A stretch of 64,000 nt of DNA, taken from Bacilli bacterium. Lineage in GTDB: Bacteria > Bacillota_I > Bacilli_A > JAJDGJ01. Numbering within the stretch: position 1 is the stretch's first letter; each line of letters starts with the position of its first letter. Positions 22,604 through 42,852 of this stretch are shown here, one piece after another. The translations under genes and the position numbers were made by a program. Where the stretch lies: assembly GCA_031272545.1 (NCBI GenBank), contig JAISTP010000022.1, forward strand, positions 1,533 through 65,532, read 5' to 3'. The notes below the pieces were generated by a model. That model had not been told where the DNA came from, ran no database searches, and saw nothing but the letters and a program-made list of their open reading frames with translations.

Positions 22604-22874
22604 TAAAAAAAGTCCTTCATCCTCTAATAAGGACGAAAGACTTCGTGTTACCACCTTAGTTTATAAGTATTTCACAATACTTACCTCATCAAGTACTCTG
22701 TTCAATGACAGGTTATACTCTAGCACGATAATGGGTGCAACCATACTAGCCTAACATATTATTATGCTCGGTAGTCCGCTCCAAAGCCATTTTCATTATT
22801 GTTCACTTATCTAGTTTCACCAAACCTAGACTCTCTATAAAGTTAGTAATAATTACTTTCTTTTTCATTGCGTT
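22604..22874 (-). promoter_or_regulatory. T-box riboswitch leader of the metY-metA-yitJ-metH operon (probable Met specifier)
   Basis: The minus-strand RNA contains AGAGAG (AG bulge), distal loop TTTGGTGAAAC, T-box core AACTAAGGTGGTAACACGAAG, and a terminator GTCTTTCGTCC..GGATGAAGGAC plus T7 (22604-22641). An ATGA tetranucleotide lies on the 3' side of Stem I. The specifier was not verified by folding. Confidence 0.8.
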
Positions 22875-22880
22875 GCAATT

Positions 22881-23024: not shown

Positions 23025-23054
23025 AAAAAAGTTCTTGAAGCATTCAAGAACTTT
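23025..23054 (-). terminator. Intrinsic terminator ending the arg operon
   Basis: Minus strand AGTTCTTGAA-TGCT-TTCAAGAACT followed by T6. Confidence 0.7.
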
Positions 23055-23228: not shown

Positions 23229-24560
23229 TTATTTATTGTTATTATCTAACCAATTCTTATTTAAATTACGTTTATTAAAACAATTTTCTAAAGATATCTC
23301 TTGATAAATATCATCTTCAAAAAATGATGATACTTCTTGATATTTATTTAAAGGTAATGTTGAAAAATCTAAATCCTGTTCTAAACAATAAGCAACTAAT
23401 TTTCCAACTATTTGATAGGCTTCACGAAATGGAACTCCTTTTTTTGCTAGGTAATCCGCCACATCTGTTGCATTAATAAATCCTTTATGAGCTGCTTCTT
23501 TCATATTATCTTTTAACACTTTCATACTTGATAACATCGGAATGAATGTTTTTAAACATATCTTAACAGTATCAATACTATCAAAGATAGCTTCTTTATC
23601 TTCTTGCATATCTTTATTATAGGCTAAAGGCAGAGCTTTAAGCATCGTCAACAAAGCAATACTATTACCATAAACACGTCCTGTTTTACCACGGACTAAT
23701 TCCGCAATATCAGGATTTTTCTTTTGAGGCATAATTGATGAACCTGTCGCAAAAGCATCATCTAATTCAATATACTTAAATTCATTTGAACACCAAAGTA
23801 CTATTTCTTCACTAAATCTAGATAAATGCATCATAATAATATTAATAGCACTAGCTAGTTCTAAACAATAATCACGATCAGAAACAGCGTCCATGGTATT
23901 GATCATAGGTTTATTAAAACCAAGTAATGAACTAGTTTCTTCTTGACTAATAGGATGAGTAGTACCAGCTAAAGCACCAGCACCTAATGGGCTTTCATTC
24001 ATTCGATTATAACAATCATCAAGTCTTGTAATATCACGTTTGAACATTTGAACATAAGCATCTAAATGAATTGCTAAACTTATTGGTTGTGCTTTTTGTA
24101 AATGAGTATATCCACTCATAATAGTATTCTCATGTTCTAAACATAATTTATTTAAAACTAATAGTAATTCTTTTAAATATTTCTTAATATTATTAATTTC
24201 TTTTTTTACATATAATCTTAAATCTAAAGCTACTTGATCATTTCTACTTCTAGCTGTATGTAATTTCTTACCTAAAGTTCCTAATCTTTTAGTTAATTCC
24301 TGTTCAATAAAAGAATGAATATCTTCGGCATCTTTAATTTCTAATTTATCACTATCTATATCTTTTAAAATATTATTTAATTCATCAATAATCTTATTAC
24401 TTTCTTCTTTATCAATAATATTACAATCACCTAACATAGTTACATGCGCAATAGAACCAATAATATCTTCATAATATAGTCTTTTATCAAAAGGTAATGA
24501 TGAATTAAAATCATTAACATCTTGATTTAATTCTTTACTAAAACGTCCTTTCCATAACAT
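23229..24560 (-). CDS. argH: Argininosuccinate lyase
   Basis: Fumarate-lyase signature GSSIMPQKKNPD and the ArgH N-terminus (LWKGRFS). Confidence 0.95.
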   Translation of the reverse strand: MLWKGRFSKELNQDVNDFNSSLPFDKRLYYEDIIGSIAHVTMLGDCNIIDKEESNKIIDELNNILKDIDSDKLEIKDAEDIHSFIEQELTKRLGTLGKKLHTARSRNDQVALDLRLYVKKEINNIKKYLKELLLVLNKLCLEHENTIMSGYTHLQKAQPISLAIHLDAYVQMFKRDITRLDDCYNRMNESPLGAGALAGTTHPISQEETSSLLGFNKPMINTMDAVSDRDYCLELASAINIIMMHLSRFSEEIVLWCSNEFKYIELDDAFATGSSIMPQKKNPDIAELVRGKTGRVYGNSIALLTMLKALPLAYNKDMQEDKEAIFDSIDTVKICLKTFIPMLSSMKVLKDNMKEAAHKGFINATDVADYLAKKGVPFREAYQIVGKLVAYCLEQDLDFSTLPLNKYQEVSSFFEDDIYQEISLENCFNKRNLNKNWLDNNNK

Positions 24561-24562
24561 AA

Positions 24563-25801
24563 TTACTTTTCCTTTCCATCAATATCTTCAGTTAATTTAT
24601 TTTTTAATAAACCTAATGTTTTCATTTCTAAACCATATATTTTAAGAAAACCAGAACTATCTTTTTGATTAAAAATATCATCTTCTTCAAAAGTTGCTAG
24701 TTCTTGTGAATGTAAAGAATATTTTGATTTTAATCCAGCTACTATCATATTACCTTTATATAATTTAAGTTTTACTACACCGCTAACATGTTCTTGAGTC
24801 TTATCCACAAAGACATCTAATGCTTCTTTTAATGGAGTAAACCAATGACCAGTATAAACAAGTTGTGCATATTCTTGGGCTACAAAGTTTTTAAAATGAG
24901 TAGTACTCTTATCTAAACAAAGACTTTCTAATAATTCATGAGCACGATATAACAAAGTCGCTCCAGGTGATTCAGATACACTATGTGCTTTCATACCAAT
25001 AATTCTATTAGCGACAATATCTAATATCCCAATACCATGTTTACCTGCTATTTCATTTAATTTCTTTACTAAAGATAAGCTATCTAAATATTCATCATTT
25101 ACTTTAATAGGTAATCCTTTTTCAAATTCAATACTAATATATTCAGCTTCATCACTTGCTTTTTCAGGAGTATTACATAATTCCATATATTCCCAATTAG
25201 GTTCATTACTTGGATCTTCTAATTCCATCCCTTCATGTGATAAATGCCATAAATTTAAATCTTTTGAATAATTCTTTTCTCTGCTAATACCATTTAATTT
25301 AATATTATGCTTTTCACAATAATCAAATTCATCACTTCTTGAAGTTAATTCCCATTCACGCCAAGGTGCTATTATTTTGATATTAGGAGCTAAATTCATA
25401 ATACTTAATTCAAATCTAACTTGATCATTACCTTTACCAGTGGCTCCATGACAAATAGCATCAGCATGTTCTTTATTGGCGATTTCTACTAATTTTTGGG
25501 CAATTAATGGTCTAGCAAGTGGAGTACCCATTGTATACCCTTCATATTTAGCACCCGCTTTTAAAGCTTTAAAACAATAATTATCAATAAATTCTTTTTG
25601 TGCATCAATGACAATTAATTTATCTAAACCACTACTATTAGCTCTTTTATTAATATTACTTAATTCACTAGTTTGACCAACATTAACACATACACCAATA
25701 ACAAAAGGATTATTATAATTTTCTTTTAACCATGGCACAATAACTGATGTATCTAGTCCACCACTATATGCCAAAACTACTTTTTTAATATTATTACTCA
25801 T
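24563..25801 (-). CDS. argG: Argininosuccinate synthase
   Basis: AYSGGLDTS PP-loop. The ATG at 25801 follows GGGGGAAAAG and overlaps the upstream stop (ATGAGTAA). Confidence 0.95.
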   Translation of the reverse strand: MSNNIKKVVLAYSGGLDTSVIVPWLKENYNNPFVIGVCVNVGQTSELSNINKRANSSGLDKLIVIDAQKEFIDNYCFKALKAGAKYEGYTMGTPLARPLIAQKLVEIANKEHADAICHGATGKGNDQVRFELSIMNLAPNIKIIAPWREWELTSRSDEFDYCEKHNIKLNGISREKNYSKDLNLWHLSHEGMELEDPSNEPNWEYMELCNTPEKASDEAEYISIEFEKGLPIKVNDEYLDSLSLVKKLNEIAGKHGIGILDIVANRIIGMKAHSVSESPGATLLYRAHELLESLCLDKSTTHFKNFVAQEYAQLVYTGHWFTPLKEALDVFVDKTQEHVSGVVKLKLYKGNMIVAGLKSKYSLHSQELATFEEDDIFNQKDSSGFLKIYGLEMKTLGLLKNKLTEDIDGKEK

Positions 25802-26288
25802 CTTCTTTTCCCCCATTAAAATATATTTGTTTATTTCCAGTTAATCTAGCCCAATAATCAGTCCCATACTCAAAATGCCACCATTCATTATAAAAGTTAA
25901 TAAAACCTTCATCTTTCATTAAAGAACATAATAATTCACGATTAGCTTTAACTTCATCATTAATATAATATTCAGTAGCTTGAGTACCGTCAAAACAAAG
26001 ATAATCACTACCCATATCTTTATCTAATAATGCAATATCTACTGCGCCTCCAGTAACATGAACCGCTTTGCTTGGTATTGCAATATATTTATGGACTTGT
26101 TCATCACTCATATCAGGATGTTCTTCTTTAAATTTATTAAACATAGCTATTTGTTTTTCAATAGGGCGATAGCCTTCATAAAGAATTATTTTATGATTTT
26201 TTGCAACTCTTTTTAACTTTTCATAAACTTCTTCTTGAAGATATTGTGTAGTATAAGTAATTATATTTTTATCATCTACTTTAATCAC
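25794..26288 (-). CDS. M15-family zinc D-Ala-D-Ala dipeptidase/carboxypeptidase-like protein (VanX/VanY fold)
   Basis: HxxGxAxD (VHVTGGAVD) and EWWHFEY motifs. GTG start at 26288 with SD AAGGAGA 6 nt upstream. Overlaps both neighbouring genes by 8 nt. Confidence 0.75.
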   Translation of the reverse strand: MIKVDDKNIITYTTQYLQEEVYEKLKRVAKNHKIILYEGYRPIEKQIAMFNKFKEEHPDMSDEQVHKYIAIPSKAVHVTGGAVDIALLDKDMGSDYLCFDGTQATEYYINDEVKANRELLCSLMKDEGFINFYNEWWHFEYGTDYWARLTGNKQIYFNGGKEDE

Positions 26289-27900
26289 AATTAATCTCCT
26301 TTACATTTAAAGCTTGTCCCATTATTAACATGGCTTCCGCAATACCTAAACCATTAGAAAATTCTTGTAAAGTAATAATATCATTATCAAATAAACAAAC
26401 TTCATCATCATATTTACAATCAATACCTGTTACATCTATCATACAAATATCCATACAAACTTTACCTATTATTGGCGCTTTCTTGCCATTAACAATGACA
26501 AAACCTTTATTAGATAAATTTTTTCCAATACCATCCGCATAACCACCACTAATAGTTGCGACTTTGGTTTCTTTATCTGTTTTATATGTTCTATTATAAC
26601 CAACATAATAATCTTTTGGTAAAGTAGTTATTTGAATAATCTTACTAGTTAATTTTAAAGCTGGTTTTAAAGATACATATTTTTTTAAATGTTCTTCAGG
26701 ATAATAACCATATAAAATTAAACCTATTCTTGCCATATTACAATGATCCTGTGGTTGAACAAACGAAGCTGAAGAACAACCAGAATGTTTATATTTTATT
26801 TCACCTAGGATACTTTGTGCTATATCAATACATTCAAGAAATATTTTTGTTTGCATATTAGAATACTCAATATCTTCAATAGCTTCACTTTCAGTACAAC
26901 AATAATGCATAAATATTCCATCTACTTTTATATTTTTTAATTCTTTTATTTTCTTACAAAATTCTAATAAATCTTGTGGTAAAATACCTAACATTCCTGA
27001 ACCTGCTTCAATATTTAAATGAACTTTAGTTCCCCCTTCATCATTTAATTGTTCTAGAAATTCAATATTATTACTTACAGCTATTTGAAATTTATGACTA
27101 ACTATTTCAGGAATATCTTCAAAACAAGGTTGATACATTAAGAAAACATCACCTTTATAATATTGTTTTAATTTAATAGCTTCAGCTAAAGTCGCAACAC
27201 CAGCAATACGAGAATTCTTGATCACTTTCGCAATAGCTTCAAAACCAATTCCATAAGCATGTCCCTTAACAACAGGCATAACTTCCATTTTAATAGCATT
27301 TTCTATATTCTTTAAATTATCTTTCATAGCTTTAATATCAACTAATAAATTTGTTGGATTAAACATAGTACTCTTCTCCTTATCAAATAACATATATATT
27401 CTATAATCATCACTTGTATTACCATTACCTTTCTGTATTAAAGGTAATTCTTCAAAACCCATTCTTTTATGTAAAGCAATACTTGGCACATTATCTGTTT
27501 TAGTTCTCATTAATATTTTATTAACAGGGCATTGTTTGATTGTTTCTTCTAATAATTTCTTGGCGATATTATTACCTCGATCTGATTTAATTACGCCTAA
27601 CTCTGAATGATAATATACTTCTGTTGGTTTATTAAAATAGTTTTTAACTTCATTAGAAATATATTCATCATATAATAATGGTCTAGATCCCGCAAAACCA
27701 ACTAATTTTTTATTTTTATAGGCAAATAAAAGAAAACCTGTTTTTAGATGGTTACTATAAATATCCCATAATTCTTCATCAGAGTATTTAATAAAATACG
27801 GTGCACTTCCAAAACATTCATCAAATAATTTAGGAAAACCTTTATTAAATTCTTCTTTTAATTCTTGTTCATCTTTTAATCTTTTAATTTCAATATCCAT
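26281..27900 (-). CDS. Fusion protein: N-terminal GNAT acetyltransferase plus C-terminal alanine-racemase-fold PLP enzyme
   Basis: Residues ~1-175 are GNAT (DRGNNIAKKLL motif A, ALHKRMGFEE). Residues ~180-539 are Alr-like (VVKGHAYGIG PLP-lysine motif, GGYADG, GKVCMD). Confidence 0.8.
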   Translation of the reverse strand: MDIEIKRLKDEQELKEEFNKGFPKLFDECFGSAPYFIKYSDEELWDIYSNHLKTGFLLFAYKNKKLVGFAGSRPLLYDEYISNEVKNYFNKPTEVYYHSELGVIKSDRGNNIAKKLLEETIKQCPVNKILMRTKTDNVPSIALHKRMGFEELPLIQKGNGNTSDDYRIYMLFDKEKSTMFNPTNLLVDIKAMKDNLKNIENAIKMEVMPVVKGHAYGIGFEAIAKVIKNSRIAGVATLAEAIKLKQYYKGDVFLMYQPCFEDIPEIVSHKFQIAVSNNIEFLEQLNDEGGTKVHLNIEAGSGMLGILPQDLLEFCKKIKELKNIKVDGIFMHYCCTESEAIEDIEYSNMQTKIFLECIDIAQSILGEIKYKHSGCSSASFVQPQDHCNMARIGLILYGYYPEEHLKKYVSLKPALKLTSKIIQITTLPKDYYVGYNRTYKTDKETKVATISGGYADGIGKNLSNKGFVIVNGKKAPIIGKVCMDICMIDVTGIDCKYDDEVCLFDNDIITLQEFSNGLGIAEAMLIMGQALNVKEINCD

Positions 27901-27914
27901 ATTATTACCTCCCT

Positions 27915-27956
27915 AATAAAAAATGACGTTACTCACTTATTTGAATAACGTCATTT
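27915..27956 (-). terminator. Leader terminator (attenuator) 10 nt upstream of the SD of the GNAT-racemase gene
   Basis: Minus strand AATGACGTTATTC-AAATAAGT-GAGTAACGTCATT (13 bp including one G-U) followed by a T-run, then TAGGGAGG and the ATG. Confidence 0.7.
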
Positions 27957-27995
27957 AAATTGTTCATTAACTACAAAAATATTATCTTTTTGTCT

Positions 27996-28079
27996 TTACA
28001 AGTCACAATGAAATACGACGCATCCATTATAACGGCGTCGAACTACGATATTTACATTATTATTAATTAAATTAATCAT
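27996..28079 (-). CDS. Candidate leader peptide (27 aa) with three consecutive Arg codons
   Basis: My own translation gives MINLINNNVNIVVRRRYNGCVVFHCDL. SD AAGGAGA is upstream. The Arg codons are CGA CGC CGT, in a genome where Arg appears mostly AGA-encoded, and they form the 5' arm of a CGACGC/GCGTCG hairpin. Confidence 0.4.
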   Translation of the reverse strand: MINLINNNVNIVVRRRYNGCVVFHCDL

Positions 28080-28107
28080 AGTTATTATCTCCTTTACTTG
28101 ATGCTTT

Positions 28108-28138
28108 ATAATATAAAGGTTTCTTAAATATTTGTCAA
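28108..28138 (-). promoter_or_regulatory. Promoter of the Arg-leader transcript
   Basis: Minus strand TTGACA (28133-28138) followed about 17-19 nt later by TATATTAT. Confidence 0.45.
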
Positions 28139-28162
28139 GATAAATTTATTTAATGTTATAAT
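28132..28162 (+). promoter_or_regulatory. Promoter of the decarboxylase gene
   Basis: TTGTCA (28132-28137) and extended -10 TGTTATAAT (28154-28162). The -35 overlaps the divergent TTGACA. Confidence 0.45.
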
Positions 28163-28186: not shown

Positions 28187-29506
28187 ATGGATAAAAATTA
28201 TGAAAAACTTTTAGATAAAACTTTATTATTTTCAAAAGAATATCTTAATTTATTAGAAAATAGAGAGATCTTTCCTTCTAAAGATAATCTATCATATTTA
28301 AAACAAATAGATACTAAACTACCAATAGAAACGCTTAATGAAATAGAAGTATTAAATGAAATTCATGAACTAGCAAAAAAGACAACTGTTATTCAAAATA
28401 GTGGTCGATATTTTGGTTATGTCATTGGAAGTATGTTACCGATAGCTCATGCGATTAGTTGGTTAAGTGATACTTATAATCAAAATAATGCACTTTATCA
28501 TATGTCTTTATTTAATGCGAAAATTGAAGAAATTACTCAAAAATGGTTAAATGAATTATTAAGACTTGATAAAAGATGTGTAACAGGTTTTGTTAGTGGC
28601 TCAACTACAGCTACTCTTTGTGCTATAAGTATTGCTAGAAATAATATTTATAAAAATAATGATATTAATAAATTAAGAATAATTATCAGTGAACAAGCTC
28701 ACTTAACGATATTTAAAGCATTAAAAATATTAGGAATTAATGAAAACATTATTATAAAAGTACCTTGTGATAAAGATGGTAAGATAATTGTATCTGAATT
28801 ACCTAAACTTACTTGTAATGATATTATCATTATTCAAGTTGGAAATTTAAATGGTGGTGCAAATGATGATATCAATGCGATATGTTCAATAGCCCAAAAA
28901 GTTAAAGCATGGGTTCATATTGATGGAGCTTTTGGTTTATGGAGTTGTATGTTAGATGAATATAAAAATGATTTTATTGGGCTTGAAAAAGCTGATTCAT
29001 ACTCATTAGATGCTCATAAAACATTAAATGCATGTTATAGTTGTGGCATGATAATATGTAAACATAAAGATATATTTATTGATACAATGAATTATAACTT
29101 ACAAAAAACTAATGATGATAAGAGAAATAATATGACTTATTCATTAGAAATGTCTAAAAGAAGTAGAGCTTTAATGGTATATGCGACTATTAAGCAATTA
29201 GGAAAAAATGGTATTATTAATATGTTAGAACAAATGTCAGAAATAACAAAATATTTTGCAAGTGAACTAAAGAAACATCACTTAACTATTGTTAATAAAG
29301 TTAATTTTAATCAATTTATGTTTTATTATGACAATGATACTAAAACAAAAATACTATTAAATAAAATAAATAGTAGTGGAAAATGTTATTTTTCAAGTAG
29401 CACTTTTAATAATCATTATGTAATAAGAGTTAGCGTTTGTTCATATAAAACAAATAAAAATGATATAGATTATTGTATTAATATTATTAAAGAATTATTA
29501 GTTTAA
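28187..29506 (+). CDS. Group II PLP-dependent decarboxylase-like protein
   Basis: SLDAHKTLN PLP-lysine motif, fold-type I layout. 439 aa. Confidence 0.65.
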   Translation: MDKNYEKLLDKTLLFSKEYLNLLENREIFPSKDNLSYLKQIDTKLPIETLNEIEVLNEIHELAKKTTVIQNSGRYFGYVIGSMLPIAHAISWLSDTYNQNNALYHMSLFNAKIEEITQKWLNELLRLDKRCVTGFVSGSTTATLCAISIARNNIYKNNDINKLRIIISEQAHLTIFKALKILGINENIIIKVPCDKDGKIIVSELPKLTCNDIIIIQVGNLNGGANDDINAICSIAQKVKAWVHIDGAFGLWSCMLDEYKNDFIGLEKADSYSLDAHKTLNACYSCGMIICKHKDIFIDTMNYNLQKTNDDKRNNMTYSLEMSKRSRALMVYATIKQLGKNGIINMLEQMSEITKYFASELKKHHLTIVNKVNFNQFMFYYDNDTKTKILLNKINSSGKCYFSSSTFNNHYVIRVSVCSYKTNKNDIDYCINIIKELLV

Positions 29507-29824: not shown

Positions 29825-29901
29825 TGGTGACCTGTACGGGATTCGAACCCGTGTATGCATGCGTGAAAGGCATGTGTGTTAAACCGCTTCACCAACAGGC
29901 C
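29825..29901 (-). tRNA. tRNA-Glu (anticodon UUC), CCA encoded
   Basis: Folded by hand: acceptor GGCCTGT/ACAGGTC, anticodon stem CATGC/GCATG with loop CTTTCAC, T-arm ACGGG-TTCGAAT-CCCGT. Close to my memory of B. subtilis tRNA-Glu. Confidence 0.9.
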
Positions 29902-29907
29902 AATTAA

Positions 29908-29982
29908 TGGCGCCTGAGATAGGGCTCGAACCTATGACCGATCGGTTAACAGCCGATTGCTCTACCACTGAGCTACTCAGGC
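29908..29982 (-). tRNA. tRNA-Asn (anticodon GUU), CCA encoded
   Basis: Folded by hand: acceptor GCCTGAG/CTCAGGC, D-arm GCTC-AGTGGTA-GAGC, anticodon stem ATCGG/CCGAT with loop CTGTTAA, T-arm ATAGG-TTCGAGC-CCTAT. Confidence 0.9.
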
Positions 29983-42623: not shown

Positions 42624-42845
42624 AATAAAAAAAACGCATCTACATAGAAACGTAAATACGCGGTACCATTCTACTTCATATCAAAAGATATGCCCTCTAC
42701 TTATAACGCTAAGTATGCGAGATAGTCTACTATTAGTTCTCCTATCTGACTCCAAAAGTGTTCCTTATTTAAGATATTTAAGCTTTCACACCACCCAAGC
42801 TCTCTCTTTAAATATTACTTAAACAAAGTCTTTCTTCCATGTCTT
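42624..42845 (-). promoter_or_regulatory. T-box riboswitch, distal copy (Asn specifier AAC likely)
   Basis: The minus-strand RNA has AAAGAGAG, distal loop GGGTGGTGTGA, AGGAACAC, T-box GTAGAATGGTACCGCG, and terminator ACGTTTCTA-TG-TAGATGCGT plus T8. Confidence 0.8.
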
Positions 42846-42852
42846 GTGCACT

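Follow-up and report, generated by a model that had tools for sequence, protein, structure and literature searches.

A candidate arginine-specific leader-peptide attenuator in front of an argG-argH operon in uncultured Bacilli

What controls an operon ending in argG and argH whose promoter is followed not by an obvious repressor site or T-box, but by a short open reading frame (ORF) with three consecutive arginine codons and an intrinsic terminator? Arginine biosynthesis is a textbook case of repressor control (ArgR/AhrC); arginine regulons are ArgR/AhrC-controlled or, in some Firmicutes, T-box-controlled, and a counterpart of trpL or hisL for arginine is not known to us as an established device. 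The leader that raises this question lies on the minus strand of a 64-kb stretch of Bacilli DNA with 24.6% GC (assembly GCA_031272545.1, contig JAISTP010000022.1, positions 1,533 to 65,532), which is referred to as a whole as the window. A sequence-only reading had proposed arginine leader-peptide attenuation for it, and our comparison and folding analyses support that proposal. Judged by sequence comparison and RNA modelling, the element is very probably an arginine-specific ribosome-mediated (leader-peptide) transcription attenuator that responds to arginine, a reading supported by its anatomy, its conservation, its alternative pairings and an arginine T-box in front of an orthologous operon. 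Translation of the leader, stalling of the ribosome, a kinetic choice between the hairpins and a response of the operon to arginine are what we infer.

All elements of the leader are given in minus-strand orientation. A sigma-70-type promoter at 28110..28138 (TTGACA at 28138-28133, a 17-nt spacer and TATATT at 28115-28110) matches the consensus at 11 of 12 positions and is followed by a strong Shine-Dalgarno (SD) site, AAAGGAGA (28088..28095), situated 8 nt 5' of the ATG (at 28079) of a leader ORF of 27 codons plus stop (27996..28079; TAA at 27998-27996) that encodes the peptide MINLINNNVNIVVRRRYNGCVVFHCDL. Codons 14-16 of this ORF are CGA CGC CGT (28032..28040). They are overlapped by region 1 (28030..28046), the 5' arm of a hairpin with region 2 (AUGGAUGCGUCGUAUUUCA, 28009..28027; 1:2 duplex of -10.9 kcal/mol), and region 2 can alternatively pair with region 3, in which case it acts as the putative antiterminator. 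Region 3 (AAAUGACGUUAUUCA, 27942..27956) and region 4 (UGAGUAACGUCAUUU, 27921..27935) are the 5' and 3' arms of the terminator hairpin (27956-27921; -17.3 kcal/mol), a 15-bp stem followed by the T-run TTTTTTATT (27915..27923). It sits after the leader ORF and before the first structural gene, which has its own SD site (AGGGAGG, 27914-27908) and an ATG at 27900. Promoter, SD site and ORF are thus present as first described, and so are the terminator hairpin and its U-run, except that the stem comprises 15 instead of 13 pairs and that 6 nt rather than 10 separate the terminator from the SD site of the first gene. The hairpin CGACGC...GCGUCG, whose 5' arm had been said to be formed by the arginine codons, belongs, together with the terminator, to the leader's minimum-free-energy fold (z = -3.8 relative to shuffles). 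The string CGNCGNCG occurs a single time in the 64-kb window, both strands counted (0.06 expected), which exceeds chance; only five ORFs with an RRR run were counted across its six frames, and no further copies of the leader were found in the window or in related loci.

Orthologous operons were identified via homologs of the fusion protein encoded by the first gene and of ArgG on contigs from metagenomes and metagenome-assembled genomes. Including the window, nine distinct leaders (window, L001, L002, L005, L006, L007, L012, L014 and L100) were found upstream of the same operon, on contigs of 25-49% GC and with protein identities of 54-74%. The RRR leader, whose conservation had been named as a check, is kept throughout: all nine combine the ORF with a run of 3-4 arginine codons starting at codon 13 or 14 and with a terminator. 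A promoter and an SD site of their own are present in all leaders but L014, which is truncated at the 5' end and of promoter, SD site and ORF shows the ORF only; promoters equivalent to that of the window accordingly precede seven of the eight other leaders. Next to the window peptide with its CGA CGC CGT, the peptides and arginine runs are MFDLSKNIHIADRRRKSSSVLFAFAFNVR with CGA CGC CGC (L001), MFNFISKVDNVADRRRRLNSVLFACALRRCS with CGA CGC CGT AGA (L002), MFKHKLKVNIIARRRRNFYKK with CGT CGC CGC CGT (L005), MIKNNLNLNTIVRRRRNFYRK with CGC CGT CGC CGT (L006), MPEFKQIIIVNEDRRRRMNASVLRF with AGG CGC CGC AGG (L007), MIKYELPSRNIQVRRREIQASYLRFRGCGVSLM with CGA CGC CGT (L012), MTNKSLKLNIIARARRNYLYEIEITTF with CGC (GCT) CGT CGT (L014) and MHVTVIMLEVKEARRRRDNVLFL with CGA CGT CGT AGA (L100). 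A generic scan of the related loci, looking for the combination of SD site, small arginine-run ORF and terminator, returned exactly these leaders plus one match inside a coding region. One more leader (L012) and two leaderless loci came from a scan of metagenomes, and a scan of the GTDB species genomes with the fusion protein gave no match, while one with the M15 peptidase of the operon gave only relatives at 26-37% identity, such that no close ortholog could be placed taxonomically.

Outside the arginine run, both the peptide and the RNA sequence diverge, the peptides varying in length from 21 to 33 residues, with a loose N-I/V-x-x motif often found before the run. This pattern bears on the notion that the RRR(R) stall might have nothing to do with charging of tRNA-Arg and might instead reflect polybasic or nascent-peptide arrest, possibly in response to free arginine, leading to constant expression or to induction at high arginine. 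Translation is inherently slow on CGA codons and on stretches of basic residues, and the recurrent motif in front of the run as well as the non-classical nature of the operon's first two genes would be in line with such an arrest. A peptide so poorly conserved outside its arginine run is not what this notion leads one to expect, induction by excess arginine would be senseless for argG-argH, and the high-arginine variant is contradicted by the arginine T-box of an orthologous operon (see below), as this device induces when tRNA-Arg is uncharged. We thus give peptide arrest a very small chance.

As for the codons of the run, CGU, CGC and CGA are all expected to be decoded by one tRNA-Arg (anticodon ACG, modified to ICG), with CGA read by a slow I:A wobble pair; genes for tRNA-Arg(ACG) and tRNA-Arg(TCT) are present in the related locus L009. 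CGN codons account for 25 of the 28 arginine-run codons in the first eight leaders and CGC alone for 12 of the 28, although the low-GC hosts use CGC for only 2-11% of their arginine codons. CGA is the first arginine codon in all but one of the six leaders of the type A architecture described below, and a stall at the first arginine codon is the position that leaves region 2 fully exposed.

The sequence-only reading could not make out an antiterminator, and this gap is now closed, since such a pairing is present in every leader tested. In the window, GGAUGCGUCGU (28025-28015), a part of region 2, pairs either with the arginine codons or with the terminator 5' arm at 27954-27943. The duplex between region 2 and the terminator 5' arm AAUGACGUUAUUCA has a free energy of -12.2 kcal/mol, a value equalled by 2% of dinucleotide shuffles (p = 0.02), and because the 1:2 and 2:3 pairings share 12 nt of region 2, they are mutually exclusive. 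To model the ribosome thermodynamically, it was treated as an unpaired block of ~28 nt and the transcript was folded at the stage before the terminator 3' arm exists. With Arg14 of the window leader in the A site, 14 of the 15 nt of the terminator 5' arm were predicted to pair with region 2; this number decreased to 11 nt for a stall at Arg15, to 9 nt at Arg16 and to zero for a ribosome at the stop codon, where the 1:2 hairpin re-formed behind the ribosome. Across the leaders, 5-14 nt of the terminator 5' arm paired with region 2 when the ribosome was on the first arginine codon, and none did so in the window, L005, L006, L007 and L100 when it was at the stop codon. The 2:3 duplex was found in eight of eight leaders tested (-9 to -16 kcal/mol; shuffle p <= 0.02 in seven of the eight), and in seven of them it occupies nucleotides that also form the 1:2 hairpin. 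Even at equilibrium, the terminator probability dropped from 0.6-0.9 to 0.0-0.47 in L001, L002, L007, L012 and L100 once the modelled ribosome was stalled on the first two arginine codons.

The nine leaders fall into two architectures. In type A (window, L001, L002, L007, L012 and L100), a GACGC or GCGUC core is found in all four regions, and lineage-specific changes in these cores keep the pairing: compensatory ones give GACGU:ACGUC in 3:4 of the window and in 1:2 of L100, and L007 and L002 employ G·U pairs. As a whole-leader MAFFT alignment misaligned region 3, segments anchored on the cores were used instead. In the ungapped core alignment of the six type A leaders, 89% (1:2), 77% (2:3) and 72% (3:4) of the cells pair, compared with 17-72% in slid registers, a clear dependence on register. 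Type B (L005, L006 and L014) is unrelated to type A in sequence and yet follows the same 1:2 / 2:3 / 3:4 logic. Here, region 1 (CGUAAU, the last arginine codon plus AAU) pairs with AUUACG, and region 2 (GAAAUAGAGAUU, which holds the leader stop codon in L005 and L006) mimics the terminator 3' arm GAAAUGGCGAUU, both pairing with AAUCGCUAUUUC. The three type B leaders show coordinated substitutions across regions 2, 3 and 4 (UAAG/CUUA/AGAAA versus UAUG/CAUA/UGAAA), and L006 has a matched one-base insertion in regions 2 and 3. In addition, L005 (5294-5362) and L006 (3883-3962) carry tandem terminators, the second of which has a 5' arm that can base-pair with the first one's 3' arm; formation of 2:3 would therefore free region 4 for pairing with a region 5 (4:5), thereby blocking both. 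According to this pairing model, one upstream decision could block or allow both terminators in these two leaders, and the type B double terminator with its chained pairings is an unusual design.

Comparison of the two architectures also speaks to the idea of a translation-independent RNA switch, in which the small ORF would be a bystander and the choice of hairpin would fall to a protein or small ligand. In its favour, the alternative structures do exist, the GACGC/GCGUC pentamer, present four times in type A leaders, could be a binding motif, and 3' of the arginine run there is conservation at the nucleotide level despite a different reading frame (L014 versus L005 and L006). The pentamer repeats are missing from type B, however, and what the two architectures have in common is the start codon (plus the SD site where upstream sequence exists), a distance of 12-13 codons and an in-frame arginine run. 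Moreover, the leader matches no Rfam family even at E <= 10, and the arginine T-box on an orthologous operon points to tRNA-Arg charging as the signal. An RNA switch of this kind appears highly improbable to us, if the least improbable of the alternatives weighed here.

The following sequence of events is envisaged for the leader as an attenuator. RNA polymerase would transcribe from the promoter at 28138-28110, and a ribosome would start on the 27-codon leader. With charged tRNA-Arg plentiful, this ribosome would pass codons 14-16 and move onto region 2; with region 2 covered, region 3 would be free for region 4, and the 15-bp terminator would stop transcription before the structural genes. 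Behind the ribosome, or without translation, 1:2 pairing would lead to the same terminated outcome. Upon scarcity of Arg-tRNA(ICG), the ribosome would stall with the first arginine codon (CGA, I:A wobble) in the A site, covering region 1 and leaving region 2 free, so that GGAUGCGUCGU of region 2 could pair with the nascent AUGACGUUAUUC of region 3 before region 4 is made. The 2:3 pairing would bar the terminator and permit readthrough into the genes for the GNAT/racemase fusion and the M15 peptidase, argG and argH.

Several observations weigh against this picture or limit it. The terminator exceeds the antiterminator in stability in four leaders (window, L005, L006 and L014), where it dominates at equilibrium under any ribosome mask (P ~0.8-0.95; P = 0.95 in every ribosome state of the window once the 3' arm is present). 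Since no equilibrium state of the window leader lets the antiterminator prevail, its switch has to be kinetic, and the same requirement applies to the other three leaders in our models, bearing in mind that folding cannot prove kinetics; in the window and in type B, the states are separated only by co-transcriptional folding with the 3' arm unmade, not by equilibrium folding under the mask. The terminator of the trp leader is also more stable than its antiterminator, and attenuation there is understood as kinetic. The leader ORFs of L001, L002 and L012 do not stop until well downstream of region 2, hence a terminating ribosome leaves region 2 unmasked and termination must rely on re-formation of 1:2. 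Covariation among the six type A leaders is weak, as 38-64 of 500 shuffles reach the observed score, which is not significant; the paired cores hardly vary, and this is the reason for the weak statistics. The arginine codons had been described as rare ones in an AGA-rich genome. With AGA at 64%, CGT at 27%, CGA at 5%, CGC at 1.7% and CGG at 0 in the window, this holds for CGA and CGC and fails for CGT. The preference for CGN may be driven by GC-rich pairing, codon rarity being only part of the explanation, and since GACGC pairing demands the very same codons, pressures for stalling and for pairing are inseparable. Finally, all leaders derive from one set of related, uncultured lineages, and two of the related loci, L011 (140-215) and L013 (1720-1830), have short leaders without an ORF. 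The fusion-gene homologs of these two lie downstream of queA, and L013 keeps GCGTCATTTTTTAT, which is similar to the terminator 3' arm and may be left over from an attenuator that has since disappeared.

That arginine supply is what the leader senses is backed, among indirect evidence, most strongly by an arginine T-box and an ARG-box-like site on related operons. In L009/L010, genes for GNAT, racemase, M15 peptidase, ArgG and ArgH, with a transporter gene and argS next in line, are preceded by a T-box (111 bits). Its specifier loop in L009 reads GAA-G-AGA-G, and a methionine T-box of the window reads GAA-A-AUG-G at the same model positions; the latter calibrates the specifier position, which identifies the L009 specifier as AGA (Arg). 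L009 has a further, near-identical arginine T-box in front of another GNAT gene and three genes for tRNA-Arg (ACG, TCT, TCT). The end of this second GNAT gene overlaps the first of the tRNA-Arg genes, the T-box of the main operon comes after them, and with the transporter gene and argS downstream of the operon, L009 (3552-4642) has the appearance of an 'arginine island'. In the relative L101 (4930-5005), argGH stands alone without a leader ORF, and an ARG-box-like sequence, TATGAATGAATAATCAAT, is located just after the -10 element; by its sequence, this site suggests ArgR control there. These findings argue that the operon is under arginine-related control, exerted by different devices in different lineages.

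The ARG-box-like site of L101 brings up the reading that the arrangement in the window arose by chance or is a decayed remnant, with a promoter-bound repressor of the ArgR/AhrC type exerting the actual control. It is ArgR that ordinarily regulates arg genes, and in the window an ARG-box-like site with three mismatches (28133-28150) overlaps the -35 element. Yet, scanning the window for the ARG-box (TNTGAATWWWWATTCANW) gave 184 sites against 265 expected from shuffles, which puts this site at chance level and makes the scan uninformative at 25% GC. That the leader persists across nine loci with GC contents far apart, and in two architectures, is incompatible with chance; a repressor may act in addition, without replacing the attenuator. 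As the whole explanation, repressor control is very improbable, the least probable of the readings considered.

As to the operon itself, designated an arg operon by the sequence-only reading, the name suits its end and not its beginning. The first gene (26281..27900, minus strand, as are the following) encodes a 539-aa fusion of a GNAT acetyltransferase with an alanine-racemase-like protein, and the second (25794..26288) an M15 peptidase resembling VanX/D-Ala-D-Ala dipeptidases; these are followed by argG, for argininosuccinate synthase (24563..25816; 545 bits versus a cut-off of 334), argH, for argininosuccinate lyase (23229..24560; 592 bits versus a cut-off of 279.5), and a terminator at the operon end (23028..23054). 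The GNAT domain gave only generic acetyltransferase matches against solved structures and NCBIfam; the racemase scores above the TIGR00492 cut-off and is also VanT-like. GNAT, racemase and the VanX/VanXY-like M15 peptidase are always linked to argG and usually to argH as well (window, L001, L002, L005-L009, L014, L017 and L100), with GNAT and racemase fused in some lineages and encoded by separate genes in others. In L100, argA/B-like, argF and argD genes adjoin the cluster; in L019, the racemase gene follows argS; and in L017, an amidohydrolase takes the place of argH. If the leader is an arginine attenuator, this linkage flags the GNAT/racemase/M15 module as co-regulated with arginine supply, the whole set then being under tRNA-Arg control.

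Turning to the surroundings of the operon, its terminator is followed by a new promoter and the methionine T-box mentioned above (22626-22877, minus strand; AUG specifier), driven by TTGACA-17-TAGAAT at 22909-22881 and leading into methionine genes that resemble those for O-acetylhomoserine sulfhydrylase, metA and methionine synthase. A second T-box leader of the window is located at 42643-42848 (minus strand). Divergent from the leader is a gene for a pyridoxal-phosphate-dependent decarboxylase (28187-29506, plus strand) whose start is a mere 49 nt away from the leader promoter's -35 element and which belongs to group II, with weak similarity to diaminobutyrate, aspartate and tyrosine decarboxylases. 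Genes for tRNA-Glu(TTC) and tRNA-Asn(GTT) are found at 29825-29982 (minus strand); the 64-kb window contains no tRNA-Arg gene.

How does the leader relate to known systems? The sequence-only reading knew of no established arginine leader-peptide attenuator, and our searches of Rfam and the literature revealed none either. Scanning the leader against Rfam 15 (gathering score and E <= 10) gave no family, the best matches being unrelated chance ones; in particular, there was no T-box (RF00230) at 27880-28160, whereas the same scan found the two T-boxes elsewhere in the window. A full-text literature search found no arginine leader-peptide attenuator with an intrinsic terminator, although subscription journals were outside its coverage and an earlier prediction is possible; matches for 'arginine leader peptide' were twin-arginine signal peptides only. 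The leader shares with the E. coli/Salmonella trpL, hisL, leuL, thrL, pheL and ilvL leaders a promoter, a short ORF with tandem codons for the end product, four RNA segments with mutually exclusive 1:2, 2:3 and 3:4 pairings, and an intrinsic terminator just before the first gene. It differs from these classical attenuators in its specificity for arginine, in the lack of sequence or covariance-model similarity to Rfam leader families, in its occurrence in low-GC Bacillota-type hosts, where T-boxes are the norm, in having one subtype with two tandem terminators that would be switched together (2:3 plus 4:5), and in controlling an operon that is not a complete arg pathway. Like an arginine T-box, it would sense tRNA-Arg charging and have readthrough of an intrinsic terminator as output; the T-box, however, binds uncharged tRNA directly and without translation, and it reads tRNA-Arg(UCU) via AGA, while the window leader shows no T-box features and the leaders mostly present CGN codons read by tRNA-Arg(ICG). 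A free-arginine arrest peptide of the fungal arginine attenuator peptide type was considered as well, and is ruled against by the non-conserved length and sequence of the peptide. Overall, the proposed mechanism is of a known kind, with a new amino-acid specificity and an unusual double-terminator variant, and does not constitute a new principle.

Three further bacterial systems come close in one respect or another. In the Salmonella speF leader, orf34 is a short upstream ORF (uORF) with adjacent codons for arginine at positions 12-13, and pausing at low arginine alters downstream RNA folding, with effects on mRNA stability (RNase G), Rho-dependent termination and exposure of the ribosome binding site (PMC6386406). 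Different from our leaders, orf34 involves no intrinsic terminator/antiterminator, its peptide is a conserved one (DUF2618), and the target is ornithine decarboxylase rather than arginine synthesis (PMC6386406). The rbfL leader peptide of S. aureus, a Firmicute, senses arginine limitation by pausing at rare arginine codons as well, but these are AGA and AGG (tRNA-Arg UCU), the paused ribosome occludes the ribosome binding site and represses translation, a biofilm regulator is targeted, and a terminator plays no part (PMC13009471). Comparative genomics continues to yield new leader-peptide attenuators, among them those recently predicted for the cysS uORF in Rhodobacterales and the aroF uORF in Acholeplasma, where tandem cognate codons (positions 14-15 in cysS) are followed by an intrinsic terminator, for Cys and Phe instead of Arg and in other sequences and taxa (PMC8632094).

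Taking the leaders, the T-boxes and the gene neighborhoods together, we lean, if only slightly, towards a wider reading: the leaders would constitute the first family of arginine-specific trp-type attenuators, reading tRNA-Arg(ICG) and evolutionarily interchangeable with arginine T-boxes (and probably with ArgR operators) on the same genes, and they would mark the module of GNAT, Alr-like racemase and VanX-like peptidase as an unrecognised part of arginine metabolism that is induced with argG-argH by arginine starvation. If true, this would extend the classical leader-peptide mechanism to a further amino acid. The leader could then serve as a compact and portable sensor of arginine or tRNA-Arg(ICG) for AT-rich Gram-positive hosts, and the GNAT/racemase/M15-peptidase module would offer a concrete lead to a new function. 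For the lineages concerned, one and the same operon would be governed by a leader peptide in some relatives and by a T-box or a repressor site in others, which would amount to a useful natural experiment on regulatory turnover.

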